Counted from the stretch's first letter, positions 1 through 27,922 are shown. The stretch: DNA of 32,000 bases from Nostoc sp. PCC 7120 = FACHB-418 (GCF_000009705.1 NC_003240.1:1-32000), one strand, 5' to 3'. The notes: generated from the sequence alone by a model not told the origin. Numbers and translations: made by a program.

Positions 1-116
1 GTCGACGCACTAACACCAGATTCTTCGGCGACTTGTTTCCAATTCAGTCGTTTTGACTGCCTCTGGCTGTCTAATGCTGCGTAAAAGGCTTCAACGTCAA
101 ACTGTCCTTTTGCCAT
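1..116 (-). CDS. XRE/Cro-type helix-turn-helix protein, N-terminal 38 codons only (runs off the window start)
   Basis: The reverse complement from ATG (116..114) reads MAKGQFDVEAFYAALDSQRQSKRLNWKQVAEESGVSAS with no stop before base 1. LNWKQVAEESGVS looks like an HTH_3 recognition region. GGAGA (complement of 121-125) lies 4 nt upstream of the ATG. The ORF is absent from the track because it is truncated. Confidence 0.5.
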   Translation of the reverse strand, partial: MAKGQFDVEAFYAALDSQRQSKRLNWKQVAEESGVSAS

Positions 117-135
117 TTCATCTCCAATTTCACTC

Positions 136-163
136 TTGCAATTCTACGTCATGTGTGTAATAT
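136..163 (+). promoter_or_regulatory. Candidate sigma70-type promoter for the Ubl operon
   Basis: TTGCAA (136-141), a 16-nt spacer, then TAATAT (158-163), with TATAAT also at 161-166. It sits in the 99-bp divergent gap between the HTH gene and the Ubl gene. If used, the ATG at 153 is not transcribed. Confidence 0.3.
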
Positions 164-215
164 AATAAATAAAATTTCATTAATGAAATTGAGAGTCAGA
201 TTTGCAATTAAACTT

Positions 216-740
216 ATGACGAACAATATTGTGGTTGAGGAAATTGAATTGGAAAAATGGGTTAGACAGCACGGGGCTGTACAACCCCCGCTTGCAAAAC
301 ACTACTTGGTGCGGATTGATGACCGAAGTTATAAAGTAGACGACCCCGTGATTACAGGAGGGCAGCTGCTTGATAAAGCAAGCAAGAGGCCTGTGGATGA
401 GTACCTTATCTTCCAAATGCTAAACAACGGTCAGTTAGAAGAAATCCGCCTTGATGAAACCGTTGAACTCAGAAAGCCTGGTATCGAGCGATTCATTACT
501 TGGCGCAGCGATCGCTCCTTCCGTTTTGTCATCGACGGTCGGCGATTTGAATGGGGAGCGCCAATTATCACAGGGTTAAAGCTGAAGGAACTTGCTGGCG
601 TTGACCTTGCATCCTATGGAGTTTGGCTTGAACTACGTGGTGCAGAAGACCGCCCAATTGCCGATAACGAATCTGTCGATTTACAAGCACCAGGAGTCGA
701 GCGATTCTTCACTGGTAAAAAGACTACAACGGAGGGTTAA
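216..740 (+). CDS. Tandem beta-grasp (multiubiquitin-type) ubiquitin-like protein ending in Gly
   Basis: There is an internal duplication. HYLVRIDDRSYKVDDPVITGGQLLDKA...ETVELRKPGIERFIT matches FRFVIDGRRFEWGAPIITGLKLKELA...ESVDLQAPGVERFFT. The C-terminus is ...KKTTTEG directly before the stop. It is the first gene of the E2/E1/JAB operon. Start chosen at ATG 216 (MTNNIVVEE); ATG 183 or 153 are alternatives. Confidence 0.7.
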   Translation: MTNNIVVEEIELEKWVRQHGAVQPPLAKHYLVRIDDRSYKVDDPVITGGQLLDKASKRPVDEYLIFQMLNNGQLEEIRLDETVELRKPGIERFITWRSDRSFRFVIDGRRFEWGAPIITGLKLKELAGVDLASYGVWLELRGAEDRPIADNESVDLQAPGVERFFTGKKTTTEG

Positions 741-743
741 GTA

Positions 744-1124
744 ATGAGCTTTTTACCCTCAAACGATCGCCAATACCTGGAAAACAGGGGTTTACCTTTT
801 GAAGAAGTGGTAGATGCCAGTCAAAAGGGCGTTATTTTACGCGAATTTCAGTTACCACTTGGCCGTTTTGATACTGAACAGGCAGATATCTTAATTCTCT
901 TGCCGAGCGGATACCCAGATGCACCCCCCGATATGTTTTACCTGCTGCCGTGGGTAAAGCTGGTACAAGGTGCAAAATACCCAAAGGCAGCCGATCAACC
1001 ACACCAATTTAATGGTCAGAAATGGCAGCGATGGTCGAGACATAACAATGAGTGGCGACCTGGTACAGATGGCATATGGACAATGCTCAAACGGATTGAA
1101 AATGCTCTGGAGGTGGCTGCTTGA
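744..1124 (+). CDS. Prokaryotic E2 (UBC-fold)-like protein lacking any cysteine
   Basis: ILILLPSGYPDAPPDMFYLLP resembles the E2 'fP..YP..pP.v.F' strand-loop. The 126-aa protein contains no Cys at all. It starts 3 nt after the Ubl stop, and its TGA overlaps the TTG start of the next gene. Confidence 0.6.
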   Translation: MSFLPSNDRQYLENRGLPFEEVVDASQKGVILREFQLPLGRFDTEQADILILLPSGYPDAPPDMFYLLPWVKLVQGAKYPKAADQPHQFNGQKWQRWSRHNNEWRPGTDGIWTMLKRIENALEVAA

Positions 1125-2548
1125 ATACTGTAAGCTTGACATTGCAAGAGCAACACTCAAATTACCTGCACGAATTGCTATTAACCATAGATGGTAAAGA
1201 GCGAGCAGCCTATGTCTTGTGTGGACAGGCCGTTATCAATGCCGACCCTTGGGATGGGCAGCCGCACCAAAAATTCATTTCTTATGAAGTAATACCAGTG
1301 CCAGAGGATGAAATTGTTTCTTTCTCTGCCAAACACATTACCTGGAAAACGGATTCTTTTGTTCGGGCATTGCAAGCGGCACAAGCAAAAAACCTGACAC
1401 TAGCCGTTTTCCACAGCCACCCAGAAGGCTTGAGAGAATTCTCTATTCAAGATGATACTAACGAACCAGACTTGATTCAACTGGCACAAAACCGCAACGG
1501 CTCAGATACACAGATTTTGAGTGTTATCCTAATGCCGGATGGAAATTTGATTGGTCGCCTGTGGGTTAGTTCGCAGGAAGTTATCTCCTTGCGGATAATT
1601 CGTGTTATTGGGCAGAAAATCCGTTTGCATTATCCAAACCGGGGGCTGGGGGTTTCTCCTCCAGCATTGCAGCGACAAGCTTTAGCTTTTGGGGAAGCCC
1701 TCAATCAAGACTTATCGATGTTGCGTGTTGGGGTCATTGGTTGCGGCGGTACAGGAAGTGCGATCGCTATGTTGCTGCCAAAGATGGGTATTCGGAACAT
1801 TGCACTTTTCGATAAAGACATTGTTGAGGATACAAATTTAAATCGGCTACACGGTGCGCGTCAGCCAGATGCTGATGCTATGAGTCCCAAAGTTGAAGTT
1901 GTTGCCAAGTCACTTGTGGAACTTGGACTTGGTGTTCAAGTGAGAACATATCAAGCTTGGATTGGAGAAGCAGACTGCCGCGATCCCCTGAAAGCGTGCG
2001 ACGTAATTTTTTGTTGCACTGATGACCACACGGGTCGCCTAATGCTGAATAGGTTTGCCTACTACTATGCAACACCTGTGTTTGATATGGGTTTAGCAAT
2101 TGAGGTTTCTCAAGGGGAAACGCCCAATTTTCAGGCTTTGGATGGTCGCGTCACGGTGCTTGTACCTGCGCCAGGACACGCCTGCCTGTTGTGCCGAGAA
2201 ATTATTAACCCTGTGATTGCACGAGATGAAGCATTGAAACGTAGTAATCCTGATGAGTACGAACGTCGTAAGGCAGAAGCCTACGTCATTGGAGAAGGAA
2301 ACCCCAGTCCTGCCGTTGTTTTATTTACAACAGAGGTAGCAATTATGGCAATGCAAGAACTTGTCCACCGCCTTCAGGGTTTCCGTGGTGAGGATGGTGC
2401 AGCAGCTCACAGGGTTCGTAAATTCCATCTGACGACTGACCGTAAACCAGCAGCAATTCTTAATTCCAATTGCCCAGTTTGTGGAACAGTCGGCTCTCAA
2501 TCGTGGGGTAGAGGGGATGTTATACCTTTCCTTAATTTGGTGGAGTAA
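1121..2548 (+). CDS. JAB/JAMM metallopeptidase fused to an E1-like (ThiF/MoeB-type) adenylation domain
   Basis: The N-terminal part carries a JAMM motif: GKERAAYVLCG, then FHSHPEGLREFSIQDD (HxH-x7-S-xx-D). The C-terminal part has a Rossmann loop VGVIGCGGTGSAIA, DKDIVEDTNLNRL, CTDDH and two CxxC pairs (CLLC, CPVC) typical of the E1/ThiF zinc site. The TTG start at 1121 overlaps the E2 stop (TTGA). There is no in-frame ATG upstream of the JAB motifs. Confidence 0.85.
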   Translation: MNTVSLTLQEQHSNYLHELLLTIDGKERAAYVLCGQAVINADPWDGQPHQKFISYEVIPVPEDEIVSFSAKHITWKTDSFVRALQAAQAKNLTLAVFHSHPEGLREFSIQDDTNEPDLIQLAQNRNGSDTQILSVILMPDGNLIGRLWVSSQEVISLRIIRVIGQKIRLHYPNRGLGVSPPALQRQALAFGEALNQDLSMLRVGVIGCGGTGSAIAMLLPKMGIRNIALFDKDIVEDTNLNRLHGARQPDADAMSPKVEVVAKSLVELGLGVQVRTYQAWIGEADCRDPLKACDVIFCCTDDHTGRLMLNRFAYYYATPVFDMGLAIEVSQGETPNFQALDGRVTVLVPAPGHACLLCREIINPVIARDEALKRSNPDEYERRKAEAYVIGEGNPSPAVVLFTTEVAIMAMQELVHRLQGFRGEDGAAAHRVRKFHLTTDRKPAAILNSNCPVCGTVGSQSWGRGDVIPFLNLVE

Positions 2549-2551
2549 GGG

Positions 2552-2911
2552 ATGTTTCTTCGCGGTGTAATTAGGCGGCTGTTAATCTGGCTACGTTTTC
2601 TTCCCCAGCCAGACTTATCAGCACGGATAGTTCCAACACATCCTGCACCTGAGAATATAAAACCAGGGGAGATTTTAGTCGTTGGTGATGCTGAATATCA
2701 GAAATGGGCTTGTTTTCGTTGCCCTGGAGGATGTGGTGAAAATATTTTGCTGTCTTTGAATCAAAAGCGGCATCCTTGCTGGGCGATCGCCATTGATTCG
2801 TTGGGACGACCAACACTTAATCCTTCTGTTAGGCAGCTTAACGAATGCCACTGCCACTTTTGGGTGCGTCAGGGAGTTGTTGAATGGTGCGCTGATTCAG
2901 GACAGAAATAA
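2552..2911 (+). CDS. Small Cys/His-rich protein, DUF6527-like (fourth gene of the Ubl operon)
   Basis: CFRCPGGCGE...HPCW...TLNPSV...ECHCHFW...EWC. As I recall, the CPxGCG and LxPS-type motifs match DUF6527, a family found next to ThiF/E2 genes. It starts 3 nt after the E1 stop. Confidence 0.5.
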   Translation: MFLRGVIRRLLIWLRFLPQPDLSARIVPTHPAPENIKPGEILVVGDAEYQKWACFRCPGGCGENILLSLNQKRHPCWAIAIDSLGRPTLNPSVRQLNECHCHFWVRQGVVEWCADSGQK

Positions 2912-3034
2912 ACCTTATAGTCTCGTTTAGCAGAAAAATCCACTTCTTACTTACTCCTGGGTAAGCAATATTCCCATTGCATGAATTATTTGCGGAGCAA
3001 CAACTCTATGACGAAGTGTACATGAATTGAGAGG

Positions 3035-3052
3035 AGAGCGATCGCTCTTTTT
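3035..3052 (+). terminator. Weak hairpin plus T-run built on a HIP1 palindrome
   Basis: AGAGCGATCGCTCT followed by TTTT, about 125 nt downstream of the operon stop. The stem is short, so it is weak. Confidence 0.25.
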
Positions 3053-3367
3053 ACTTTGAGTTAATCACCAGACTGAACGATAAACCGTAAAATTACTACT
3101 AACTCTAGTACGGTTTTCACTAGTAGTACAATTGTTCTTTTTAATCAAAAAGCATTAAAATACAGTGTAGTAAAGTGCTACACACTGACATAGTGTGAGT
3201 CAATGTCGGCTGAATTCAAATGAATTTGGTTACTAACGATAGGTAATACGAGTAAGTTTTTCTGGAAGATATATTTGATTCAAATATTGATGATGGTGGC
3301 ATATGAAAAGAAATTACCATAGCGCTGCGCTATGAATAGCCCAATTCAGTAAAGGTAAAAAAAATAG

Positions 3368-4456
3368 ATGTTTCCGCTTATCACACACTTTGAAGAACTG
3401 CTCAAGAACATTCAACCACCCCAAGAACGCCTTGATGCAGCACGCGATTTGCCACCCTTAGTCCGTGAGTACATTGCCAAAAGCAAAGATTTTCCCACTG
3501 TCTACCCTCACTCTCGACTTGCAGGCTCATACGCCCAAAAAATGGCAGTAGGTGATGTTAAAGACGTAGATACCCTAATACGTGTCCCTGGTGATCCAAA
3601 GGCAAATGAACCAGAGGCTAAACGATTAATTCAAGATATGAAAAAGTTGCTTGATGGCTTGCCAAAAGCTTTGGGCTTTGAGGGATATGCAGAAGCGGAA
3701 ATAGAAGTAGAGCGGGCACGCCGATCCGTCCATGTCTACTTCAAAGGCAAAGACTTCCACCTAGACTTTGTTCCTTGCATTGCACCAGATGGATTCGAGA
3801 GTGTGCTTTACGTCCCAGATCGAGGATTCAATAAGTGGATTGCATCGCACCCCATCGGGTATCTCAACTTACTCAATGAGCTACAGGAAAAACACGACCA
3901 CAAAGTTAAACCACTTGGCAAGCTTCTGAAGCACTTCCGTGACTGCCAAATGAAAAGCCGCAAACCCAAAAGTTACTGGCTTGGCGCTCTGCTGGTTTAT
4001 CACATCCAAAAGAACACTTTAGACATGACACAGCCATTGGCAGTCCTATTTTACGAGCTTTTGGATGCTATTTACCGCCAATACGATCACCTGCTATATA
4101 CTAGCAATGTTGCAACCCCAAACCTCCCCGATCCGATCCTTGGTCATAACATCTCTTGGAACTGGAGTCGCACCCACTTTGAAACCTTCATGAGACGGAT
4201 TAATGAGGGACGGAATTGGGCAGCTAAAGCTTTAGAGACTGATGATCGGGAGAAGGCGATTAAATACTGGCAAAAAATCTTTGGAGAAGAATATTTTCCA
4301 TCAGAGGTAGAAACCGCTGCGTCTCAATTGGCTAAAGCGGGTTTACCTGGCAAATCTTACGTCAGCTCTACTGGTTTAATTCTACCCAGCCAACCTGCTT
4401 CTGGTTTATACACTTCAACCATTGCAACCAAGTTTCATGGGATTGACCAAGGCTGA
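3368..4456 (+). CDS. CD-NTase / SMODS-type nucleotidyltransferase (CBASS cyclase) with a C-terminal Gly
   Basis: Pol-beta NTase motifs are present: LAGSYAQKMAVGDVKDVDTLI (GS...DxD) and a third acidic residue in HLDFVPC. A long tail ends ...TKFHGIDQG before the stop. It is followed by E2-like and SAVED-effector genes. Confidence 0.8.
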   Translation: MFPLITHFEELLKNIQPPQERLDAARDLPPLVREYIAKSKDFPTVYPHSRLAGSYAQKMAVGDVKDVDTLIRVPGDPKANEPEAKRLIQDMKKLLDGLPKALGFEGYAEAEIEVERARRSVHVYFKGKDFHLDFVPCIAPDGFESVLYVPDRGFNKWIASHPIGYLNLLNELQEKHDHKVKPLGKLLKHFRDCQMKSRKPKSYWLGALLVYHIQKNTLDMTQPLAVLFYELLDAIYRQYDHLLYTSNVATPNLPDPILGHNISWNWSRTHFETFMRRINEGRNWAAKALETDDREKAIKYWQKIFGEEYFPSEVETAASQLAKAGLPGKSYVSSTGLILPSQPASGLYTSTIATKFHGIDQG

Positions 4457-4931
4457 ATATTCTCAACTGAAACCCACTATCAACCTGGGGCTGCAAAACC
4501 TACACATATTGCACCGATTTCCTGGGTTCGCTTACAGGCGAGAGCGTGGGGTAGCTGTATGGCGAGGCACGCTTCAACCCCGTCAGTTTTCCCCAAAATA
4601 TCGAGTAGCAATCCGCTACAAACTCAGCTCTTACCCAACCGTTAATGTCATATCTCCCACTCTGGCATCACGACCTCCCCATGTTTGGAAAGACGGAACT
4701 TTATGCCTCTACTACCCCAAAGAAAAACCGTGGCAGAAAGATATGCTGCTTGCAAAGACTATCATCCCGTGGACTGCATTATGGTTATATTACTATGAAC
4801 TGTGGCTAGATACTGGAAAATGGCTCGGACCATCATCACACGCCTCAGATTCAAAACTCCAAAGTTGGAGTTCCAATCCCGTTGAAGGGTATTCTATTTT
4901 GGAAAAACCGACTGAGCAGCAAACCGCATGA
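4422..4931 (+). CDS. E2-like (UBC-fold) CBASS accessory protein, E2-only ('short' Cap2-type)
   Basis: YRVAIRYKLSSYPTVNVISP...PPHVWKDGTLCLYYP mimics the E2 'YP..pP.v' and 'HPN...G.iCL' active-site region, with a candidate catalytic Cys. It overlaps the cyclase 3' end (alternative start ATG 4437). Its TGA overlaps the effector ATG (ATGA at 4928). Confidence 0.7.
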   Translation: MQPSFMGLTKAEYSQLKPTINLGLQNLHILHRFPGFAYRRERGVAVWRGTLQPRQFSPKYRVAIRYKLSSYPTVNVISPTLASRPPHVWKDGTLCLYYPKEKPWQKDMLLAKTIIPWTALWLYYYELWLDTGKWLGPSSHASDSKLQSWSSNPVEGYSILEKPTEQQTA

Positions 4932-6382
4932 CAGAGAGTGAACATTTGACTCCCTCACTTCTAGAACCACAGTCTCGTGGTGGTGATATTGCTGAAGGTG
5001 GCTTTTCCTTTCAGGAGCAAGTCATGCTTGCTCGCATTCCTGCTTGGCTAGCTCAGGATGGCTTCACAGCTATGATCCGGGAAGGAATTGGAGATGTAGA
5101 GGCAAAGTTTTTTGTACCCGGCCGTGGGTTTGCGATAGAGTTTCTTGAAGTTAAAGACCATACACTCCAACCATCTAAGTTTTTAAATGAAATTCAACGG
5201 TTCCGAGAAGTAGATGCTGGTAGTCCAAACACCTATCAGCAGTTTATACTTGTAGCAGCAGGAGTTTCCAGAGACTTAGAGCCTTTGGTAAATGGATTGC
5301 GCCGCGTTCGTAATCCTCAAGATTTTTATGAAGAAAACTCTACAGTCAAAGAAAATTCTTTTAAAGAGTATACCCGCCTAGTCAAAAAAATTGGCGGCAC
5401 AGAACAAGATGCCTTTTTCATTTTTGAAAAGGTGATAGTCGAGGCAGATTGGAACACTGCAAAATCTCATGGCGAAGCTCTTTTTAAGCAGTCTTTAGCT
5501 GACAATCTGAGTGAATATGAAGATTTATCTTTTAAAACTTTTGATAATATTTATAATCACTTAGGCACATTTATACGACAGCGCAAGAATCAAATTATTA
5601 CCCGCAAAGAGTTAGAGACAAAACTGCGAGAAAAAATTCCTCCCAGTCAACTACCAGCCCTTAGTCCCATCCTGATTTACACAGCCATTGCCTCTGAAAA
5701 TAACCCAGAGCATCATGGATTGTGTTTCGATTGGGCCCCTTTTTCTGGTGGTGAAACTCGTGCGATTGCCCCATCCCAACAGTGGAATCGCTTACTCATT
5801 GAACTACAGGATACTCGAAGCTGGATTGAAAAGTATAGAAATACTAAGCGAATCAGGCTTGCTGGCAATCGTCGTCTGGCAGCATGTCTTGCAATAGGAT
5901 CTGTCTTCTCAGCTGTTAGGGGCTACGCAATTGAAATGGAATACCGTGAAGAGGTATGGGCAACAGATGCTCATCCCACTCAAGAAACCCCCGTTTATCC
6001 TTTGGCTCATCAGATGATAGGCGGAACAGGAACCCGCTTGGTTGTTAGCATAGGTATTCTTCGAGATATTATTCCTGAAGTCGAAGTCAATCTGGAGAAG
6101 TATGGACTCACAGGTGAGCCACTGCTTCACATTAGAGGAGAGCATCCTATTATTTCTCCACAACATGCCAACAATGCCGTTGGAGGCATTAAAAAATTAA
6201 TTGTCAATAACTTAGTGTGCATAGGCGGTAAAGAAATCCATTTATTTTTTGCTGGGCCTGCTCATCTTGCTCTGTTCCTGGGACATCGCTTGGACGCTAC
6301 AGCACCAGTCACTTGCTACGCATGGGTATCTAATGGTCAATACTCTAAAACATTTCAACTCTTCTCAGGAATTTCCAGCTAA
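4928..6382 (+). CDS. cap4: Cap4-like effector: N-terminal PD-(D/E)xK nuclease (DUF4297-like) fused to a C-terminal SAVED sensor domain
   Basis: The N-terminus has GGDIAEGGFSFQEQVMLA, then GDVEAKF...EFLEVKD (D...ExK). The C-terminus ends ...IHLFFAGPAHLALFLGHRL, typical of SAVED domain ends. It occupies the third position of a CBASS operon. Confidence 0.7.
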   Translation: MTESEHLTPSLLEPQSRGGDIAEGGFSFQEQVMLARIPAWLAQDGFTAMIREGIGDVEAKFFVPGRGFAIEFLEVKDHTLQPSKFLNEIQRFREVDAGSPNTYQQFILVAAGVSRDLEPLVNGLRRVRNPQDFYEENSTVKENSFKEYTRLVKKIGGTEQDAFFIFEKVIVEADWNTAKSHGEALFKQSLADNLSEYEDLSFKTFDNIYNHLGTFIRQRKNQIITRKELETKLREKIPPSQLPALSPILIYTAIASENNPEHHGLCFDWAPFSGGETRAIAPSQQWNRLLIELQDTRSWIEKYRNTKRIRLAGNRRLAACLAIGSVFSAVRGYAIEMEYREEVWATDAHPTQETPVYPLAHQMIGGTGTRLVVSIGILRDIIPEVEVNLEKYGLTGEPLLHIRGEHPIISPQHANNAVGGIKKLIVNNLVCIGGKEIHLFFAGPAHLALFLGHRLDATAPVTCYAWVSNGQYSKTFQLFSGISS

Positions 6383-6461
6383 ATTTGCTGAAGCGCTCCT
6401 GAATGGTATGTACTGAACTACCATTGGTGTAAACTTAAGCCCAAACTCCTTTAAAATCTCG

Positions 6462-7708: not shown

Positions 7709-8791
7709 ATGGAAAATTTACCCGTCAAAAGCGTGGAATCACTTGCTGTGGAGGTGGTGACTCTACCGCTTGATGAAGCTCGTGTTGCGCTTGTGGATTA
7801 TTATTTTCCCAACCGCCAGAAAATTAATTCGACACAGCAGCTAATTGAGCTATGGGTGCATTCTGTCACTATCAAAAGCGACCAAACGCGACGGGCATAT
7901 CGGCAAATCGGTTATGAGCTTGTCGATTATATGCATTCGCGGTTTGGGATATCTGATTTGAGGATGGTAACGTTATTTCATCTACACGCTTATCTGACTT
8001 GGCTCAAGGATGAAAAGCCAGTACGGGGAAAGAAAAATACTTATGGAATTAGTAAAAATACTGCGGCTAAGTACACGGCGGCGATTAAAAGTTTGTGGGA
8101 ATGGGGTACTAGAGCTTCTATTGGTTATTTTGCTATCGACTTGGGCAAGGACTTAAGCATCCAGTGGGACGATAAGCTTGCAGAGCGGATTCTGTCGGAA
8201 CGCGAGATTGCTAAGTTGGAAAAAGCGGCGATGGCAGTAGACTTGCAACACAACACTAATAAGATGCATTGGCTGTTGTTTACTCTCGTCTTTTACAGTG
8301 GGGTGAGGGCGGGAGAAATTGCCCGGCAAACTTCTGATTATGGTAAGCGCGTAATTACGCCGGGGTTATTTTGGCGGCAGTTTCGGGAGGATGGGGACTG
8401 TCTATTGTTAACTGTGACGGGGAAACGAAATAAAACTAGAACCATTAGTCTCGATCCGGAAACTAGTGCGGTACTACTGGATTACCGTGGCGATGCCAGC
8501 AATGATCAGCCTGTGTTTCCTAGTCCCAGCCGGCGGGATAGGGGTAAACCTTTAAGCGATCGCGGGTTGCGACTGATGATGGAGGAAATTTCTGCTTGTG
8601 CGGGAATTAAGTTCAGCGCCCACTTTTTGCGCCACACCCACGCAACGCTGGCTAAGAAAAATGGAGCTTCTGATTTTGACTTGCAAGCAGATTTGGGCCA
8701 CGCTTCCCCGGCGACAACTGCAAAGTACATTCACCATGTTGGGCGTGTTGGGACTTCTCACGCACTGCGTAGAAAAAGCAAACATAGGTAA
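7709..8791 (+). CDS. Tyrosine site-specific recombinase (phage-integrase / Xer family)
   Basis: Catalytic signature: SGVRAGEIAR (Arg), HFLRHTHATLA (HxxR), DLGHASPATTAKYIH (His and the Tyr nucleophile). The N-terminal SAM-like region is HLHAYLTWL. The ATG at 7709 is preferred over the TTG at 7694. Confidence 0.9.
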   Translation: MENLPVKSVESLAVEVVTLPLDEARVALVDYYFPNRQKINSTQQLIELWVHSVTIKSDQTRRAYRQIGYELVDYMHSRFGISDLRMVTLFHLHAYLTWLKDEKPVRGKKNTYGISKNTAAKYTAAIKSLWEWGTRASIGYFAIDLGKDLSIQWDDKLAERILSEREIAKLEKAAMAVDLQHNTNKMHWLLFTLVFYSGVRAGEIARQTSDYGKRVITPGLFWRQFREDGDCLLLTVTGKRNKTRTISLDPETSAVLLDYRGDASNDQPVFPSPSRRDRGKPLSDRGLRLMMEEISACAGIKFSAHFLRHTHATLAKKNGASDFDLQADLGHASPATTAKYIHHVGRVGTSHALRRKSKHR

Positions 8792-12434: not shown

Positions 12435-13037
12435 ATGACTCAAGCAATTGAACGCGAAATCAATCAACTCACGCTCAAAGAGTTAAGTTTAGATGCTGCT
12501 AAACTCTGGTCACAGATAGAAGAAGCAAGCGAGTTAGGCGAAGAAGGTAAAGTAGAACAACTCGTACAAGAACTCATGGGTGTTCAAGATGGTATCGAAA
12601 CTAAAATCGATGCGATCGCCTGGGTAGTTGACCAGTTAAATCTTGACCTTGAAACCTGGGAAGAAAGAAAAGTGCGAGTAGCCGAACTCCACGACCGGGT
12701 AATCTCACGTCGTAAAACTCAACTTGAACAAATCAAGCGTACCCTGATCCATCTGCACGAGATTGGATTAATCAGCGACAAAAATATTGGTAAAGAAAGG
12801 GTAATTGAAATCAGGGATAACCCACCCAAAGTCGCTAACTTACTAGTAGAGGTAGACGATCAAGAATTTCCTGATGAATTTAGAGTTATTAAGTACCAAG
12901 CTAATAATAAGGCAATTCTTGAAGCCTATAAATCTGGTAAAGATACTAGCGATGTTGCTGAAATAACTATTGGGAAACAGGTACGGTTTAAGGTGCAATC
13001 AGCTACTAAGGGGCGCAACAAGAAAAACCACAACTAA
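12435..13037 (+). CDS. Siphovirus Gp157-like protein
   Basis: It is 200 aa and helical. The N-terminal organisation (LKEL...EEA...KIDAIAWVVDQL...LE.W..R......L) matches my recollection of the Sipho_Gp157 family. The call rests on pattern memory only. Confidence 0.45.
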   Translation: MTQAIEREINQLTLKELSLDAAKLWSQIEEASELGEEGKVEQLVQELMGVQDGIETKIDAIAWVVDQLNLDLETWEERKVRVAELHDRVISRRKTQLEQIKRTLIHLHEIGLISDKNIGKERVIEIRDNPPKVANLLVEVDDQEFPDEFRVIKYQANNKAILEAYKSGKDTSDVAEITIGKQVRFKVQSATKGRNKKNHN

Positions 13038-15076: not shown

Positions 15077-15757
15077 TCAAGTCACATGGCTAGCTGTATG
15101 TGATGCTTCGATCAAAGGTTTGGCAACCTTTAACACAGCTTGTACCAAACTAGAAGGGGCTTTTTCTGGGGAACCAACGCCAAAAGGAGGAGCTGGATTA
15201 TACTCCAACATCAACTCAATAAATTTGGCTGTATAGTCTCCACACAACATAGCCGCGATAGTTAAAGCAAAATCAATTCCTGCTGTTACGCCTCCACCTG
15301 TGATTCGGTTACTGTCTACTACTACTCTCTCGTTACTTACTTCTACACCCATTAATCTTAGCTGTTCTCGAAACGCCCAATGAGAAGCTGCACGGTATCC
15401 TTTGAGTAATCCCGCAGCTGCCAAGATTAAAGAACCAGTACACACAGCAGTCACATACTTAGCGGACTGTGCTTGCTTTTGCAAAAAAGCTAACATTTGG
15501 GCATCTTGCATCATTTCTACAGCCCCAAAAACACCGCCAGGAACACACAATACATCAAGTTGCGGACATTCATCAAAGGTAGTAGTCGGTAAAATCGTCA
15601 ATCCACCATTACTCACAATCGGTTGGAGCGTTTTCCACAATAGCAAAACTTGAGTATTGGGCATAGATGCAAACACTTGATGTGGCCCAGTAATGTCTAG
15701 TTGGGTCATATCAGGATAAATGACTAAACCAATTATATGTTGAGGCATCGTTTCCAT
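15077..15757 (-). CDS. DJ-1/PfpI (class I glutamine amidotransferase-like) family protein
   Basis: LDVLCVPGG...YVTAVCTGSLILAAAGLLKGYRAASHW shows the nucleophile-elbow Cys followed by His, typical of DJ-1/PfpI and isocyanide-hydratase-like proteins. Confidence 0.75.
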   Translation of the reverse strand: METMPQHIIGLVIYPDMTQLDITGPHQVFASMPNTQVLLLWKTLQPIVSNGGLTILPTTTFDECPQLDVLCVPGGVFGAVEMMQDAQMLAFLQKQAQSAKYVTAVCTGSLILAAAGLLKGYRAASHWAFREQLRLMGVEVSNERVVVDSNRITGGGVTAGIDFALTIAAMLCGDYTAKFIELMLEYNPAPPFGVGSPEKAPSSLVQAVLKVAKPLIEASHTASHVT

Positions 15758-15845
15758 ACTTCAATTCCAGTCCCGGTAATGATTACAGTTATCGTAGAAT
15801 TGAATATGTTGGCTGCCAATTACCCAGTTGAGTACATTTTGGCTC

Positions 15846-16568
15846 ATGTCTGTTACTTTACCAACATTGATTCAAAAAGTCACAAATGCTTCATCAGTAA
15901 ACCAACTATGTGGACATTATATGGATGCAGCAGGAGAGTTGTTTGGCAGTCAACATTGGGGTATTTATATACATGACTGGGCCGGACAACAAGGTACTAT
16001 TCATCTCCAAGGCTTACCAGATAGTTTTATTGATTATTACTCTAAGGTTGGTGCAGCTTTAGATAAAGTGATGGAGTATGTTGTTTGCCATCATGCACCC
16101 GCCCACGAACAAATTATTTTCACGGAAGCTACTTGGAAGCAAAGTGAACTGTATCAAATTGGTTGTGGCAAAATATATGACCACGAACATATTATGACTG
16201 GGCCGATTGTTGGAGAAGGAAGGTTAATTGGTACAGTTCAATTTGCCCGCACTAGTGGAAATCCAGCTTATAATACGCAAGACTTGTTGCAATTGAGTGC
16301 CATCTGCGCCCATCTTTCTGCCAAATTAGCACTTTTACGCTCCCAACACGAGTTATTTGTGCCCAAACCGGAAATTTCTTTAACACCACGAGAATTGCAA
16401 ATGGCTGCTTTGGTAGCCAAAGGTCTGACAAATGCAGAAATTGCAGCCGAGTTATGGATTAGTCAAAATACTGTTAAGCAGACTTTAAAACGTATTTTTC
16501 GGAAGCTGGATGTATCTGCAAGAGCGGAAATGGTTGCACGGCTGCAATTAAGTAGGGTGTGCCATTAA
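15846..16568 (+). CDS. LuxR-family transcriptional regulator with an N-terminal sensory (GAF-like) domain
   Basis: The C-terminal LTPRELQMAALVAKGLTNAEIAAELWISQNTVKQTLKRIFRKLDV is a canonical LuxR/GerE HTH. The ATG at 15846 is preferred over the TTG at 15828. Confidence 0.75.
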   Translation: MSVTLPTLIQKVTNASSVNQLCGHYMDAAGELFGSQHWGIYIHDWAGQQGTIHLQGLPDSFIDYYSKVGAALDKVMEYVVCHHAPAHEQIIFTEATWKQSELYQIGCGKIYDHEHIMTGPIVGEGRLIGTVQFARTSGNPAYNTQDLLQLSAICAHLSAKLALLRSQHELFVPKPEISLTPRELQMAALVAKGLTNAEIAAELWISQNTVKQTLKRIFRKLDVSARAEMVARLQLSRVCH

Positions 16569-16707
16569 CAACTGGACTTTAGACTAAAATAGAGCACTTG
16601 CGCTTCCGCGCACCTAGAGGGGCAATCGCATCCTTGAGAAATTCCCTACTTGTATGAGCGATTTAGGAAAAATATTGAGTGTGAGAGTATTTTTCTAGAT
16701 TTTGTGT

Positions 16708-17280
16708 CTAAGTACCACTAGCATCAATCAATACAGACAAAGCATTTCTGGCATATTGCGCTCCAATGGGATTGCCCTCAATCGTTGCCATTAAACTAGC
16801 TCCCCCAATTAAAAGCAAATACTGCTGTGAAAAAGATTCCGGGTCGCGCACACCCGCTTGCTCTGCTAGCTGCATGATATAAGTGCGGATAGATTCTCTC
16901 AACTGAACTGAGACTTGATGAGCTGGATGAGAAGCATCAGCAATTTCTAAGACCGCATTGATAAATGGACAACCGCGAAAGTCAGGCAGAGCGTACCAAC
17001 CCTGGAGAACATCAAAGGTTGCCAGTAACCGCTCTTTAGGAGTGTTTCCTTGATCTGCAACTGCATTTTCAAACCAACGTAACCATTGAGCAGCACGATA
17101 TTTCATCACTTCTTCAATTAGTTGGTCTTTGGAAGAAAACCATCGGTAAAGGGTTCTTTTTGCTACACCAGACGCGGCAATGACTTCATTTATTCCTACG
17201 TGTTGAATTCCCTTCTGATAAAACAGCAGAGAAGCAGTTTCTAAAATTTGTTGACGTGCAGCACTTGATTCAGTAGTCAT
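16708..17280 (-). CDS. TetR-family transcriptional regulator
   Basis: The N-terminal ILETASLLFYQKGIQHVGINEVIAASGVAKRTLYRWFSSKDQLI is a TetR_N HTH. Confidence 0.85.
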   Translation of the reverse strand: MTTESSAARQQILETASLLFYQKGIQHVGINEVIAASGVAKRTLYRWFSSKDQLIEEVMKYRAAQWLRWFENAVADQGNTPKERLLATFDVLQGWYALPDFRGCPFINAVLEIADASHPAHQVSVQLRESIRTYIMQLAEQAGVRDPESFSQQYLLLIGGASLMATIEGNPIGAQYARNALSVLIDASGT

Positions 17281-17288
17281 AAATTTAG

Positions 17289-17351
17289 GTAGACAAGTTT
17301 GTCTCCATAGAGATATACTAGCACCTGTTCTCAGTAGACAATCTTGTCTAC
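17289..17351. promoter_or_regulatory. Two TetR-type palindromic operators in the divergent intergenic region
   Basis: GTAGACAA-TC-TTGTCTAC is a perfect 8+2+8 palindrome at 17334-17351. GTAGACAA-GT-TTGTCTCC matches 7 of 8 at 17289-17306. Their centres are 45 bp apart, between the TetR gene (-) and the AhpD-like gene (+). Confidence 0.65.
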
Positions 17352-17379
17352 TTGGGAGGTGATTAAGAGGAGTAAAGTA

Positions 17380-17940
17380 ATGGATTTTACGATTTATACC
17401 ATTGAAACTGCAAAAGAAGCCTCAAAAGAAGCTCTGCTCCATGCCAAAGAGACATTTGGTTTGATTCCAAATCTAGAGGGGATTCTTGCGGAATCTCCCG
17501 CCACCTTGAGGGGAGGCATGGCATTGTGGGATTTATTTGAAACAACCAGTTTTACGCCTATCGAACAACAGGTCATCTATCTGACTGCTAATTACGAACA
17601 TGACTGTCGCTACTGCATGGCAGCTCATTCAGGTTTAGCAAAAATGATTGGGATGACTCCCGAAGACATTGAGGCTCTGCGTCACGGGCAACCTTTAGCA
17701 GATCAGAAGTTACAAGCGTTGCGGCTGTTTACTAAGCGGATGATTGAGGCGCGAGGTTGGGTGAGTGAGCCAGAAATTGAAGAGTTCCTAGCAGCAGGTT
17801 ACACAAAGCAGCAGGTTTTGGAAGTCATTTTAGGAATTGCTGTAAAAATTATCCACAACTACACTAACCACATTGCTAAAACTCCTTTAGATAAGGCTTT
17901 TCAACCTTACGTTTGGTCAAAACCTGCGCCAGTTTCTTAA
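17380..17940 (+). CDS. Carboxymuconolactone decarboxylase (AhpD-like) family protein
   Basis: It has the CRYCMAAH (CxxC...H) motif of AhpD-like/CMD proteins. AGGAG at 17367-17371 precedes ATG 17380, which is preferred over the TTG at 17344. Confidence 0.7.
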   Translation: MDFTIYTIETAKEASKEALLHAKETFGLIPNLEGILAESPATLRGGMALWDLFETTSFTPIEQQVIYLTANYEHDCRYCMAAHSGLAKMIGMTPEDIEALRHGQPLADQKLQALRLFTKRMIEARGWVSEPEIEEFLAAGYTKQQVLEVILGIAVKIIHNYTNHIAKTPLDKAFQPYVWSKPAPVS

Positions 17941-18123
17941 TCAGAGCAGATTTGGCGAGTGCGGACTGTCAAAGTTCTCTAGTCCTGAGTTCGAGATGAT
18001 TGGCAGCCGCTCAACAAAATGTTTTTTTAATTTTGAACTTACTTGCTCAAAAGCTTGATTGACAAGGGTTTCATCTGCCAATGCAGTGTACATTTGTTGC
18101 GTAGATGTGATTGCGCTTTTTAG

Positions 18124-19605
18124 TTAAATAATTTCAAACGGGCTTCGGAAAGCATTAATTACTTTATCAAGTTCCTGAGCGATCGCTAATAACTCCATCT
18201 CACGCCACCGTTTGCCAACAACTTGCATTCCAATCGGTAGACCATCTTGAGTGTGTCCAATCGGAATCACTACCGCAGGATGTCCACTCAGATTAAATGG
18301 CATAGTGTAAGCTCCGTTTGCCACTGCATGAGGGTAGGGTCGGCCATCAATCTCAATAGCACTCCAAGCGGGACGATGGGTAAAGGCAGGGGTGGCAGCA
18401 ACAGGAGTGAGCCACGCATCCCACGGTTCTAATGCCTCATCCATTTGGGCAGTGAAGCAATCGCGCTCGGTAAGTACCTCAAAATATCCTTTCAGACGTG
18501 GGTTCAACAGGTCTGGTAGAAGGCGGCTAAAATCCCCCAATTTGCGGAGTTCTTTTTCCCCTTGGGTGGCGGTGCGAAAAATCTGCTGCCAACTGCGATG
18601 CAAGTTATATCGATCTACAGGTTGAGCGTAAATGTTGATGTATGCAGCCATCCGCCCGTAGAGGTTCAGTGTTTTTGATAGGTCAAAATTTTTGGGAAGC
18701 CAGGGTTCAATTTGGACACCTGCTTGAGTCAGGGTGTGTGCGATCGCAGTCATCGCCACTTGAATTTCAGACGCAACAGGAACCTCTACCCATTCATCGA
18801 GCCAAGCAATTTTGAGATTCTGCAAAGACTTACCAGAAGGGTTATCAAGAGGAATTGGCGGCACATCAGGACGGCGAAGATCAGAGCCTGCAATCAAGGA
18901 GAAGCACAGCCGGATATCTTCGAGCGATCGCGCAAAACAACCCACTGTCATCATTTGCCGAAGACACACTGGCATTCCAGGTACTTCTGGAATTTGTCCT
19001 GCTGTAGAAATGCGGCGATCCGTAGGTTTCAAACCATACACACCGCAGAAATGAGCAGGCTGACGCACTGAACCCGCAATATCGTTGCCTAAATCCAATG
19101 ACGATAACCCTGCTGCCACAGCCGCAGCACTCCCCCCAGAACTCCCGCCAGCAGTGTAGTCAAGATTCCAAGGATTATTGACTTGTGGAAAGAGGGAATT
19201 CGTACTTTGGTAATCGCCAGCTAGTTCCGCCATGTTTGTTTTTCCCAGGATGACTGCTCCTGCTGTCCGAAGTCTGGCAACGACGGTGGCATCTTGTTGA
19301 GGTACGTAGTCTTTGAGAGGGATGTAGCCTGCGGTGGTGAGCAACCCTGCGGTTTCAAAAATGTCTTTAATCGTGATGGGAACCCCATGTAAAGCACCCC
19401 AGTTTTCGCCTCTAGCTAAAGCCTCATCAGCCAGCCTAGCCCTAAGATAAGCATTTTCCTCATCCAGCGTGCAAATGGCATTTAACTTCGAGTTGTGTTT
19501 GGCGATTTGAGCCAAGTAAGCATTGAGAACTTCAACGGCAGAAACTTCGCGATTGCGAATCATTCGCGCCAGCTGATGGGCAGGAGCAAACGTCAGGCTA
19601 CTCAT
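18124..19605 (-). CDS. Amidase (amidase-signature family)
   Basis: It has the GGSSGGSAAAVAAG signature, the KD...T/S context (ITIKDIF) and an N-terminal SAVEVLNAYLAQI. The ATG at 19605 (MSSLTF...) is preferred. The GTG at 19647 would leave only 30 bp for two divergent promoters. Confidence 0.85.
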   Translation of the reverse strand: MSSLTFAPAHQLARMIRNREVSAVEVLNAYLAQIAKHNSKLNAICTLDEENAYLRARLADEALARGENWGALHGVPITIKDIFETAGLLTTAGYIPLKDYVPQQDATVVARLRTAGAVILGKTNMAELAGDYQSTNSLFPQVNNPWNLDYTAGGSSGGSAAAVAAGLSSLDLGNDIAGSVRQPAHFCGVYGLKPTDRRISTAGQIPEVPGMPVCLRQMMTVGCFARSLEDIRLCFSLIAGSDLRRPDVPPIPLDNPSGKSLQNLKIAWLDEWVEVPVASEIQVAMTAIAHTLTQAGVQIEPWLPKNFDLSKTLNLYGRMAAYINIYAQPVDRYNLHRSWQQIFRTATQGEKELRKLGDFSRLLPDLLNPRLKGYFEVLTERDCFTAQMDEALEPWDAWLTPVAATPAFTHRPAWSAIEIDGRPYPHAVANGAYTMPFNLSGHPAVVIPIGHTQDGLPIGMQVVGKRWREMELLAIAQELDKVINAFRSPFEII

Positions 19606-19650
19606 AGGCGTAGACAGGTAATTCTTGATAAAGTTAATTATATTCACTTT

Positions 19651-19669
19651 TAGTTAATTGCATTAACTA
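19651..19669. promoter_or_regulatory. 19-bp palindrome, candidate operator of the adjacent TetR regulator
   Basis: TAGTTAAT-TGC-ATTAACTA ends 9 nt upstream of the TetR ATG (19678). A half-site-like AAGTTAAT occurs at 19631-19638. Confidence 0.55.
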
Positions 19670-19677
19670 AATTCTTT

Positions 19678-20271
19678 ATGGGTCGTCCAGTCAAAGAAAA
19701 GTCCTTAACACAGCAGGATGTAATTAATGCTGCGATCGCCTGTCTCGATCAAGAAGGGGAAGCTGCTTTAGGTGTGAATCGGGTTGCAAGGGAATTAGGT
19801 ATTAAGCCTCCTGCGATTTACAAGCATCTAGATGGCAATTTAGCTTTGCGACGGGCAGTTGCACTTACCATTTGGCAGCAATATATTGAATGGTCTCGTC
19901 AACAAACCAACGGACTGGAAGATCCCCAAGCACTACTGCGGGCAGGGGGACGTGCGACGCGGGATTTTGCGCGGTCTTATCCCAACCGCTATCGAGTTAT
20001 GACCCAATTTCAACTCAATCTCCAAGATCCAGAAACTTCCCCACTGATTCAGGAAGTCTTCCACTTCCTCAAACGTGTGCTGCAATCCTACAATCTCAGC
20101 GAAACAAAATTAATTGATGCAATGCGAATGGTTAACGCAGCAATTACTGGTTTTATCGCCATCGAACAGGCTGGATTAATGACATTAGAACGTTCTACTG
20201 ATGCTAGTTATGAGGTGATGATAGACGCGTTAGTAGTTGCAATCCAACATATTCAAAAAGTTGACTCATGA
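19678..20271 (+). CDS. TetR-family transcriptional regulator
   Basis: The N-terminal VINAAIACLDQEGEAALGVNRVARELGIKPPAIYKHL is a TetR_N HTH. It is divergent from the amidase gene. Confidence 0.8.
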   Translation: MGRPVKEKSLTQQDVINAAIACLDQEGEAALGVNRVARELGIKPPAIYKHLDGNLALRRAVALTIWQQYIEWSRQQTNGLEDPQALLRAGGRATRDFARSYPNRYRVMTQFQLNLQDPETSPLIQEVFHFLKRVLQSYNLSETKLIDAMRMVNAAITGFIAIEQAGLMTLERSTDASYEVMIDALVVAIQHIQKVDS

Positions 20272-21144: not shown

Positions 21145-21212
21145 AATTATCAGTTATCGTACAGCATCCCTTCTAGATAAGATTGCTTCTGATTACGCTA
21201 CAAGCAACTAAG

Positions 21213-23652: not shown

Positions 23653-23793
23653 ATGAAATCAATCACTGATTTAATTATTGGAACTTGTCAAGCAAATTTG
23701 CCTGAGTTTTCACTGAATGATTTACTGAAAAACATAGTGTCTAAAAATAGAAAATTTTTAGATGATTTCACGGTTATTAATCTCATAAAATAA
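23653..23793 (+). CDS. Possible small ORF (46 aa), hypothetical
   Basis: It reads MKSITDLIIGTCQANLPEFSLNDLLKNIVSKNRKFLDDFTVINLIK. It is below the track cutoff and I recognise no family. Confidence 0.15.
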   Translation: MKSITDLIIGTCQANLPEFSLNDLLKNIVSKNRKFLDDFTVINLIK

Positions 23794-23913
23794 TTTCACA
23801 AGTGAGAAGTTGGAGCAGATATTTACTCCAATTAAAACTTAGGTAAAAAGCAGTAATTCAGCCTTAATTACCCCTACAAAGTTTCATCCAGTAATTTCTG
23901 AAATAATCTTTTT

Positions 23914-24510
23914 ATGAAAATAGACTACGAATCTGATTTTGGCAGCGATCGCATTCCTTCCTACGAAGAATACGGATACCCCGCTCCCACCCGTCGCCGT
24001 CGCAACTGGAAAGAAAACGCCAGCATCACCGGACTAATGGCAGTTGGTACTGGTTTGATGATTGCAGATATCTCACTCCACCACATGGTGATGGCATCAC
24101 TCGCGTTTGGAACTGGCATTGTAGCGTTACTACCCAAGGAAGCAAACTTGCTACTTTCCAACTTTGAGAAATGGCAGCGCAAGTATGGCATCAATATTTA
24201 TACTGTTCTGTTCTGCTTGGTAGGTGTAGTATTTATGTTGGATATCGCCACTGCACCCGCAAACGCCCAGTTTATGCAAAACGCAGAGGACTTCTTCACA
24301 GAATACTTTACTGGTGTCAATGAAGATATTATTAGGTACGTATTTGCGGTACTGCGCGGTTTGTTCCTAATTTATCTGGGTATTGGTCTTATTAGGGTTG
24401 TTCAAGCAGCCAGAAACGACGAAGATTGGCAAACGATCGCCCGTACACCAATTATCGTTGCCCTCACAGTTGTAGTCGGAGACTTGCTCGCAGGACTGGT
24501 AACAGGCTGA
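23914..24510 (+). CDS. Polytopic membrane protein; the C-terminal ~80 aa resemble a VirB2/TrbC-type pilin with a very long leader
   Basis: There is an ATAPANA|QF signal-peptidase-like site. Two hydrophobic helices follow (IIRYVFAVLRGLFLIYLGIGLIRVV and TPIIVALTVVVGDLLAGLVTG), separated by the charged loop QAARNDEDWQTIAR. It is the first gene of the T4SS cluster. Confidence 0.4.
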   Translation: MKIDYESDFGSDRIPSYEEYGYPAPTRRRRNWKENASITGLMAVGTGLMIADISLHHMVMASLAFGTGIVALLPKEANLLLSNFEKWQRKYGINIYTVLFCLVGVVFMLDIATAPANAQFMQNAEDFFTEYFTGVNEDIIRYVFAVLRGLFLIYLGIGLIRVVQAARNDEDWQTIARTPIIVALTVVVGDLLAGLVTG

Positions 24511-27810: not shown

Positions 27811-27922
27811 ATTATAGAAGAAAAGCTAAGAATAATCTGGATTTATAACAAGAAGAATCAATAACTCATAAACAAGTGGCTTAACTTTGATTGCCACATT
27901 GATTATTTTATCCACGAAAAGT

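Follow-up and report, generated by a model that had tools for sequence, protein, structure and literature searches.

Bacterial ubiquitination-like ('Bub') operons received their name from Ye, Gong, Chambers and Corbett (bioRxiv 10.1101/2024.11.21.623953), who applied it to the former '6E' or DUF6527 operons. The main text of that work defines Type I (formerly 6E.1) by the fusion of the ubiquitin-like protein (Ubl) and the E2 into one BubAB polypeptide and Type II by a free Ubl, an E2-E1 fusion, and BubE; its Table S1 lists as 'Type I Bub' also operons with a separate Ubl and E2, a deubiquitinase (DUB)+E1 fusion, and DUF6527. The same architecture, consisting of a polyUbl, an inactive E2/RWD-like protein, a JAB-E1 fusion, and a metal-binding protein, appears for Anabaena and Synechocystis (sll6052) in Table 1, row 6e, of Iyer, Burroughs and Aravind 2006 (PMC1779556). 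Here, we analyzed a stretch of 32,000 nucleotides (nt) from Nostoc sp. PCC 7120 = FACHB-418 (NC_003240.1:1-32000), referred to as the window, with all coordinates counted from its first letter. According to our analysis, positions 216 to 2911 of the plus strand are, as the best explanation of the whole, very probably a complete Type I Bub operon of a subtype in which Ubl and E2 are split, paired with the divergent regulatory genes capH and capP.

The biochemistry of Type I has been worked out in Citrobacter sp. RHBSTW-00271, the structures of which are available as PDB entries 9ea4, 9ea5, 9ea8, 9eae, and 9eav (bioRxiv 10.1101/2024.11.21.623953). In that organism the JAB domain cleaves BubAB after a conserved Gly, the E1 has a Cys-free crossover loop with an invariant Tyr370, and Ser333, His335, and Asp299 replace the catalytic Cys of the E2. 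The residues probed by mutagenesis were R227, Y370, E28, and D104 of BubCD, S333 and H335 of BubB, and S92 and H102 of BubE, and D299 of BubB was noted as invariant. Conjugation was lost both in vitro and in cells upon mutation Y370F or S333A/H335A, in the latter case for BubA-BubB and BubA-target products alike. BubE, which removes BubA conjugates, was described as a protease of weak activity that relies on Ser92/His102 and has a zinc cluster of Cys. In the conjugation assays BubA and BubB were expressed separately and the JAB mutation D104A was without effect, and the authors suggested that the Type I JAB domain acts 'primarily or solely' in BubAB cleavage (bioRxiv 10.1101/2024.11.21.623953).

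The four Bub proteins and their predicted catalytic residues

Four co-directional open reading frames (ORFs) were found on the plus strand (Table 1), and an ORF scan of the opposite strand across the operon detected no rival longer than 89 amino acids (aa). An original prediction, made on the DNA sequence of positions 136 to 2911, had recognized here the multiubiquitin/E2/JAB-E1/DUF6527 combination now called Bub, in a defense-island setting beside an antiphage signaling system based on cyclic oligonucleotides (CBASS), and had proposed searches with the corresponding profiles; this assignment is borne out by the Pfam matches and by the superposition of the BubB model described below. All five families were found as foreseen, namely, Multi_ubiq in two stretches of BubA (5.7e-50), Prok-E2_E over the full length of BubB (6.7e-57), Prok-JAB (1.8e-07) and ThiF (3.6e-39) in the single chain of BubCD, and DUF6527, which newer Pfam annotation calls 'BubE', in the fourth protein (2.1e-23). 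Judged by these profiles, Bub family membership of the four proteins is not a matter of chance, since all Pfam matches lie far above the cut-offs. NCBIfam has a specific model for none of these proteins and returned merely sub-threshold ThiF/MoeB matches, and PADLOC-DB 2023, which is without Bub models, left BubA, BubB, and BubE unmatched and matched BubCD just to the generic CBASS E1-E2 adenylation core. What carries the assignment further is that every catalytic residue defined by mutagenesis in Citrobacter, as well as the invariant D299, has an aligned counterpart in the window proteins, conserved in their relatives.

BubA is an internal duplication of a beta-grasp unit, as had been predicted: in addition to the two Pfam domains, its halves share 31% identity over a stretch of 68 aa (E 1e-9), and its closest PDB match is 9cd2, the multi-ubiquitin Ubl of E. 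coli ZDHYS365 (2.3e-36 over residues 27-168). The protein has no Cys and ends in ...KKTTTEG immediately before the stop codon. No maturation step is needed because the reactive Gly174 is encoded at the C terminus, and on this point, too, the sequence had been read correctly. For the comparison with relatives, 80 genomic loci were fetched out of the 272 species genomes that have one (Cyanobacteria, Alpha- and Gammaproteobacteria, Leptospira, Planctomycetes, and Myxococcota; individual loci are cited below by our numbers, such as L006). The TEG motif is present in all 80 of them, and in 51 the Ubl ends exactly in ...TEG-stop.

BubB contains YPDAPPDMF at residue 57, WSRH at residue 97, and not a single Cys. 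Its sequence matches Citrobacter BubB (PDB 9eae_C, 3.3e-13), the alignment pairing WQRWSRH with YQRWSRH and PDMFY with LDMFY, and Ser98, His100, and Asp63 fall on S333, H335, and D299, respectively. The AlphaFold2 (AF2) model of BubB (predicted local distance difference test [pLDDT] score, 84.5) superposes on the same crystal structure in Foldseek with a TM score of 0.87, a root-mean-square deviation of 2.4 A, and 27% identity in the structural alignment, after which follows a long tail of eukaryotic E2 and ubiquitin E2 variant (UEV) structures with weak scores (E 0.08-0.8); as modeled, BubB is a diverged form of the UBC fold that had been expected. Ser98 and His100 show no variation among 120 BubB homologues and Asp63 almost none, and a conserved Cys was sought in the same set without success, the highest column reaching at most 6% Cys. 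Since no column exceeds this value, the lack of Cys is a trait of the family and not decay of the window copy, and the degenerate-copy scenario against which the original prediction had weighed itself does not apply. Of the two Ser residues put forward there as candidates, Ser98 (QRWSRH) is the conserved one aligned to S333, but conservation does not extend to Ser55 (LPSGYP).

BubCD (475 aa) can be aligned end to end with its Citrobacter counterpart (PDB 9ea4, 6.8e-37), and all the motifs that had been quoted for an intact JAMM motif fused to an E1/ThiF domain were located (HSHP at 98, FSIQDD at 107, GCGGTGS at 207, DTNLNRL at 237, CTDD at 299, CLLC at 355, and CPVC at 451). The JAB site, E27, H98, H100, S108, and D111, is intact and aligns with Citrobacter E28, H91, H93, (S), and D104; this EHHSD signature is retained in 72 of 74 related loci. 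In the E1 half we recognized GCGGTG 207-212, NR 241-242, with R242 aligned to R227, DD 301-302, and CxxC pairs at 355/358 and 451/454. Tyr388 aligns with Citrobacter Y370 and is invariant in the 75 BubCD sequences compared (the 74 related loci and the window sequence), and the crossover-loop equivalent (residues ~362-395) has no Cys, nor is there any between residues 359 and 450. The presence of Tyr388 and Ser98 at the aligned positions is consistent with the oxyester chemistry named in the original prediction, which made no mention of the E1 nucleophile, reported to be a tyrosine. The first CxxC sits just ahead of the crossover loop and outside it. C355 and C358 are invariant (75/75), C451 and C454 nearly so (74/75 and 73/75), and Citrobacter BubCD carries TLSD where the clade of the window has CxxC. 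We take the CxxC...CxxC set to be a structural zinc site pattern as in ThiF, MoeB, and UBA5.

BubE has seven Cys (54, 57, 61, 76, 99, 101, and 113), Ser92, His100, and His102, with the NPS and CHCH motifs, in line with the Cys/His-rich fourth protein (CPGGCGE, NPS, and CHCHF) that had been described. Across 60 homologues P91, S92, C57, C99, and H102 are invariant, and the remaining members of the Cys cluster formed by C57, C61, C99, C101, and C113 are conserved in at least 90%; Ser92 and His102 are each retained in 72 of 74 related loci. The AF2 model (pLDDT, 85.5) consists of an N-terminal hydrophobic helix (residues 3-13) followed by eight strands in an all-beta core. Searches of the PDB gave no relative of BubE, the best E value being 0.59 for sequence and 2 for fold (Foldseek), in agreement with the statement by Ye et al. 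that there are no structural homologues. The role of the fourth gene had been regarded as unresolved and the whole as the least understood system in the window; both views have been overtaken, since Ye et al. report BubE to be a zinc-finger Ser-His protease that removes BubA conjugates, and publications on the architecture and on the biochemistry date from 2006 and 2024, respectively.

Set against Citrobacter Type I, the locus thus shares the JAB-E1 fusion with its JAMM site, adenylation residues, and crossover-loop Tyr, the Cys-free E2 with Ser/His/Asp, the gene order, and the Ser-His dyad of the DUF6527 protein at the identical numbers S92 and H102. It differs in that bubA and bubB are two genes and the mature Gly is the last residue of BubA, which makes JAB cleavage unnecessary, in having two beta-grasp domains in BubA instead of three, and in the invariant CxxC...CxxC of the E1 in place of TLSD; the identity between the two BubB proteins is 27%. 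The feature that stands for Type I in the main text of Ye et al., the BubAB fusion, is absent from the window, where a TAA stop and a 3-nt spacer part bubA from bubB; in view of the many split operons in Table S1, this fusion is typical of Type I and does not define it. Type II Bub (6E.2; BubA, BubBD, and BubE in E. coli ZDHYS365) has in common with the window the Multi_ubiq Ubl, a Ser-based E2, a Tyr-based E1, and BubE, but fuses E2 to E1, typically without JAB, whereas in the window the E2 stands alone and the JAB domain is joined to the E1; moreover, the E2 serine has Lys and His as partners in Type II and His and Asp in the window, as in Type I. The Type I and Type II bacterial ISG15-like (Bil) systems likewise bring together Ubl, E2, JAB, and E1 in a defense context and conjugate Ubl to lysine, but the Bil E2 is Cys-dependent and the Bil E1 has inactive and active adenylation domains and a catalytic Cys domain, in contrast to the Cys-free BubB and the single ThiF domain of ~300 aa fused to JAB in the window. 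[quoted passage not shown] The same six-gene module is present at sll6055-sll6052 on plasmid pSYSX of Synechocystis sp. PCC 6803, which has capP, capH, a two-domain Ubl (TEG-stop), an E2 of 126-127 aa, JAB-E1, and DUF6527, every protein being 54-70% identical. It differs from the window in its neighbors (an MmeI-type restriction-modification [RM] enzyme and PIN, with no adjacent CBASS), in a BubA that is shorter at its N terminus (152 aa), and in the overlap of bubCD and bubE, which in the window are 3 nt apart.

Operon layout and the predicted capH/bubA promoter region

The junctions between the four genes are +3, -4 (TTGA), and +3 nt according to a script check, exactly as had been predicted together with the TTG start of the third gene, and the spacing suggests that the four genes are probably translationally coupled. 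The order A-B-CD-E is constant in the 80 related loci wherever the contig allows it to be followed. As to the span of 136 to 2911 originally given to the operon, the four genes stand but the start of the first was off by 80 nt: position 136 is the TTG of a TTGCAA hexamer within the promoter region, out of the bubA frame. The bubA frame is open from 153, and we place the start at ATG 216 because this codon is conserved in the alignment of relatives, because a 1-nt alignment gap between ATG 183 and ATG 216 in L006 and L016 would put ATG 183 out of frame there, and because the RefSeq product on the 96%-identical plasmid pC052_E is a BubA of 174 aa. A longer BubA beginning at GTG 153 or ATG 183 was rejected on these grounds and also since ATG 183 lies inside a conserved palindrome.

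Table 1. Features of the bub locus and of the adjacent CBASS cassette, by position in the window
Feature	Position	Strand	Remarks
capH, N terminus (first 38 codons)	3..116	-	HTH_3/XRE-type repressor, cut by the window start; translation MAKGQFDVEAFYAALDSQRQSKRLNWKQVAEESGVSAS
Putative capH/bubA divergent promoter-operator region	117..215	.	99 bp
Operator-like site	126-143	.	Pattern AATTTCAYNNRTGAAATT, 2 mismatches
TTGCAA hexamer	136-141	.	Intergenic, within the operator-like site
TATAAT box	161-166	.	Read from sequence
Perfect 18-bp palindrome AATTTCATTAATGAAATT	173-190	.	Pattern AATTTCAYNNRTGAAATT, 0 mismatches; form AATTTCAY..RTGAAATT
Second TTGCAATT	202-209	.	Repeated TTGCAAT motifs in the region
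bubA	216..740	+	174 aa; two Multi_ubiq domains; Gly174 codon 735-737, then TAA
bubB	744..1124	+	126 aa; Prok-E2_E; Ser98 codon 1035-1037; His100 codon 1041-1043; Asp63
bubCD, whole	1121..2548	+	TTG start
bubC part of bubCD	1121..1630	+	JAB/JAMM metallopeptidase domain, residues 1 to ~170
bubD part of bubCD	1631..2548	+	ThiF-type E1 adenylation domain; Tyr388 codon 2282-2284
bubE	2552..2911	+	119 aa; DUF6527; Ser92 codon 2825-2827; His102 codon 2855-2857
Terminator-like hairpin GAGGAGAGCGATCGCTCTTTTT	3031..3052	+	Consensus scan; in the 456-nt spacer downstream of bubE
CD-NTase	3368-4456	+	Ends ...IDQG
E2-CBASS protein	4437-4931	+	One Cys; overlaps CD-NTase by 20 nt
SAVED/Cap4-type nuclease	4928-6382	+	Third CBASS gene

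Ahead of bubA lies the beginning of capH in divergent orientation; the remainder of this gene appears to cross the origin of record CP183475.1, the first 32 kb of which make up the window, and capP, encoding a protein of the Peptidase_M78 / ImmA-IrrE family, is beyond the window edge. In other assemblies of the same locus (L001-L004), both genes are divergent from bubA and encode a CapH of 118 aa (HTH_3/HTH_31; HTH_3, 3e-06) and a CapP of 187 aa (Peptidase_M78, 2.3e-19), and RefSeq names the products on pC052_E 'helix-turn-helix transcriptional regulator' and 'ImmA/IrrE family metallo-endopeptidase'. The arrangement is that expected of CapH/CapP, with a putative helix-turn-helix (HTH) protein and PF06114 metallopeptidase pair sharing its promoter region with the bub operon. 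In the CapH/CapP literature, CapH represses the shared promoter and CapP, once activated by single-stranded DNA (ssDNA), cleaves CapH in response to DNA damage; such a pair accompanies 31% of the catalogued Bub operons (bioRxiv 10.1101/2024.11.21.623953). The region between capH and bubA is 81% conserved across nine Nostocales loci, both palindrome arms being kept with C/G versus T/A changes in the two arms, and the TTTCACnnTTGCAATTTTAAATCA core recurs in Synechocystis pSYSX. The pattern AATTTCAYNNRTGAAATT is matched by the two intergenic sites, against 1.2 matches expected over the entire window, and we infer that these sites may serve as a CapH operator. Scans of positions 1-3500 for sigma-70 promoters and terminators gave nothing above chance, the intergenic TATAAT being missed owing to the spacing limits of the scan; the promoter assignment therefore rests on the reading of the sequence and on conservation. 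The hairpin downstream of bubE is a possible end of the bub transcript, a weak indication given that such sites do not exceed the chance count. Elsewhere in the window, a copy of the operator-like motif with 3 mismatches was observed at 23792-23809, upstream of an ORF at 23914-24510; over its first 14 bases, AATTTCACAAGTGA, it agrees fully with the consensus of the relatives.

Proposed mechanism, genomic setting, and alternative explanations

By analogy with the characterized systems, CapH would repress the shared promoter until DNA damage or phage infection produces ssDNA, upon which CapP would become active, cleave CapH, and allow the four genes to be transcribed. BubA would be made with its reactive Gly174 already at the C terminus, as seen in the sequence, and enter the pathway directly. 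The E1 half of a BubCD dimer is predicted to adenylate Gly174 and hand it to Tyr388 on the Cys-free crossover loop as a tyrosyl oxyester; from there BubA would pass to Ser98 of BubB, aided by His100 and Asp63, as a seryl oxyester and onward to target lysines. BubE, presumably a zinc-stabilized beta-sandwich with the Ser92/His102 dyad, would cleave BubA conjugates and so restrain or reset the system, and the JAB domain, which is intact and has no precursor to cut, would most likely serve to trim or clear away aberrant conjugates. As to the biological output, antiphage or stress defense is the most likely one, the operon being located on a mobile defense island of a Nostocales plasmid. By comparison with Citrobacter, we think that the chemistry can be transferred with good confidence, but the biology cannot.

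Several points weigh against this reading. The oxyester intermediates in Citrobacter were deduced from Y370F, S333A/H335A, and the structures and were not directly trapped in the preprint, and the in vitro activity of BubE was very weak, with 48-hour incubations (bioRxiv 10.1101/2024.11.21.623953). In the cited Bub literature antiphage activity has not been demonstrated and targets have not been established for any Bub operon. The capH operator and the promoter were inferred from conservation alone. Finally, the invariant CxxC...CxxC set in the E1, absent from Citrobacter, leaves some room for a cysteine-based step.

Around the operon, the flanks differ in every relative, and the distribution of bub is patchy and mobile. 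Homology of the capHP-bub segment to CBASS-less relatives ends at ~2913-2921, and the block of 6.4 kb that runs from bub through CBASS to 6394 continues only in L006, L007, L015, and plasmid pC052_E (94-97% identity). On pC052_E, a conjugative plasmid of Nostoc sp. C052, it is located between an Eco29kI RM pair and an AIPR gene; on pSYSX the six-gene module is followed by one small DUF2513 gene and then by an MmeI-type enzyme, a PIN protein, and a PLD-helicase. Both surroundings are, by their predicted gene content, defense-island settings. Within the window, the genes at 3368-6382 are, by their sequence, an E2-only Type II CBASS, in which neither E1 nor JAB was found with Pfam and PADLOC, and which is seen as an independent cassette spanning 2922-6394. 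Phage-borne Bub was considered as well and rejected, Bub being almost absent from viral sequences (one truncated remnant among 2.9 million contigs in a single scan).

Two other explanations bear on what the operon does. BubB might be catalytically dead, an RWD-like adaptor that binds the Ubl in a system which adenylates or binds it without conjugating it to proteins; Iyer et al. 2006 indeed class these domains as inactive E2/RWD-like (PMC1779556), and the missing Cys and the weak Foldseek likeness of BubB to eukaryotic E2 and UEV structures would suit such a function. However, WQRWSRH with its invariant Ser98 and His100, and the nearly invariant Asp63, in 120 homologues are hard to square with a passive adaptor, both the BubA-BubB and the BubA-target products are lost in Citrobacter upon S333A/H335A (bioRxiv 10.1101/2024.11.21.623953), and the conserved C-terminal Gly of the Ubl and the two dedicated peptidases argue for covalent conjugation, so that we consider a dead BubB very unlikely. 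A more serious contender, though still an improbable one in our opinion, concerns the biological role and would leave the chemistry unchanged, namely, that the operon serves general stress or stationary-phase proteome remodeling and not antiphage defense. Two independent transcriptome studies of Synechocystis found the orthologues sll6052-sll6055 to be induced together, one of them in the late growth phase under each of six nutrient regimes (PMC7853294) and the other in stressed isoprene-producing cells (PMC4836186), CapH/CapP responds to DNA damage in general, and the authors of the Bub study leave a stress-response role open (bioRxiv 10.1101/2024.11.21.623953). Against it stand the defense genes that surround bub in several replicons (RM, AIPR, and CBASS on pC052_E; MmeI-type RM, PIN, and PLD-helicase on pSYSX), its patchy and mobile distribution, and the fact that regulators such as CapH/CapP and CapW typify immune operons. 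One role does not preclude the other, and the induction data fit a derepression triggered by damage or stress, with which both defense and general stress roles are compatible.

The vicinity of CBASS raises the further question of whether Bub and the E2-only CBASS form one functional unit, BubCD supplying the E1 and/or JAB activity to activate the Gly-terminated CD-NTase. The two adjoin in the same direction, 456 nt apart, the CBASS has only an E2, without E1 or JAB, its CD-NTase ends in ...IDQG, and the 6.4-kb block has been inherited as a whole in L006, L007, L015, and pC052_E. Yet of the 80 related loci at most 5 have CBASS genes along with Bub and 3 the full cassette, three loci with Bub 90-92% identical (L012, L013, and L014) lose homology right after bubE at ~2921, the CBASS cassette stands alone on a Brasilonema plasmid, an insertion parts the two systems in Calothrix brevissima NIES-22, and a pattern scan found no capH operator-like site ahead of CBASS. 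The E2-CBASS literature moreover reports that purified CD-NTase and E2 ligate covalently in vitro without E1 and that the operon alone protects against phage T4. On co-occurrence, cassette boundaries, and this literature we rejected the coupling, which we hold to be extremely unlikely; the CBASS being an independent cassette, its adjacency is not to be taken as functional coupling.

Other observations were made on the cassette and on the rest of the window. The insertion in Calothrix brevissima NIES-22 (L006 12212-13495, AP018207.1) measures 1.28 kb, lies between bubE and CBASS with its breakpoint at about window position 2951-2955, and is possibly an insertion sequence. The Brasilonema plasmid with the CBASS cassette alone is CP030122.1. 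A Bub+CBASS copy on a plasmid of Chroococcidiopsis sp. CCNUC1 (NZ_CP097481.1 120478-125580) is 83% identical over 54% of the query; an IS4 transposase is annotated in it, as is a 'Mov34/MPN/PAD-1 family protein' of its own, which points to disruption by an insertion sequence. Downstream of the defense genes, a tyrosine recombinase (7709-8791; Phage_integrase, 1.6e-15) and a Siphovirus Gp157-like gene (12435-13037; 3.8e-07), with small ORFs without family around them, may belong to an integrated phage-like or mobile element. The cluster at 15077-20271 includes DJ-1/PfpI (minus strand), a GAF-LuxR regulator, TetR (minus strand), a CMD-family protein, a 507-aa amidase (minus strand; 3.4e-107), and a second TetR, and looks like accessory metabolism or detoxification rather than defense. 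Further on come a 555-aa AAA ATPase (21183-22850) and a 942-aa protein with weak FtsK/HerA/AAA_22 P-loop matches (24982-27810), downstream of which three ORFs at 27887-30666 gave no Pfam match; a role in plasmid transfer or partition is possible but unsupported.

Split operons and a possible role of the JAB domain

When we inspected the Ubl/E2 junction of the 80 related loci, 64 were split and 16 fused. The split loci comprise 51 in which the Ubl ends exactly in ...TEG-stop, mostly with a 3-nt spacer as in the window, and 13 with a tail of 2-8 residues after the Gly (e.g., TEGGA-stop with a 4-nt overlap); the EHHSD site of the JAB domain is intact in 46/48 and 12/12 of these classes, respectively, and in 14/14 of the fused loci. 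Free-standing E2 proteins also prevail outside this set: a library-wide BubB profile search yielded 689 clusters at E <= 1e-3 from 1.84 billion representatives, most of the top 150 being free-standing, and 115 of the 120 nearest BubB clusters are likewise unfused, with lengths of 124-127 aa. The two damaged JAB sites among the 74 BubCD sequences are those of an uncultured Pleurocapsa metagenome-assembled genome (MAG; L027), which reads R-Y-A-I-T, and of a Scytonematopsis contorta MAG (L018), with an E-to-K change. Both belong to the mature-Gly class (2/48 vs 0/26), numbers too small for a trend.

In mature-Gly operons the JAB domain cannot be a precursor processor, because the Ubl is encoded with its reactive Gly already exposed, and its retention in 46 of 48 such loci hints, as far as sequences go, at a role beyond precursor processing. 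The state assayed by Ye et al., with separate BubA and BubB and a harmless JAB-dead mutation, is in effect the native state of the window operon. Tentatively, and with rather more doubt than conviction, we consider that the JAB domain of mature-Gly Type I operons is a second, mechanistically distinct deconjugase or proofreader beside the BubE serine protease; the two might divide between them isopeptide products and off-pathway (oxy)ester or auto-conjugates.

The operon is a well-preserved cyanobacterial plasmid copy and an ordinary member of a recently characterized family, not a new kind of system. Nature provides in it a clean instance of the Bub configuration that has been studied least, with a free Ubl ending in mature Gly, two beta-grasp domains, and a CapH/CapP switch, and what remains of interest is the retention of the JAB site in mature-Gly operons, the two-domain Ubl, and the tractable Synechocystis orthologue. 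The orthologous six-gene module on pSYSX of Synechocystis PCC 6803 (L086 3775-6396, AP006585.1) offers a tractable native host for a search for targets. Among the relatives sampled, split, mature-Gly operons outnumber the fused ones and keep the JAB site; if true, the existence of two deconjugases would revise the suggestion that the Type I JAB domain acts 'primarily or solely' in BubAB cleavage.

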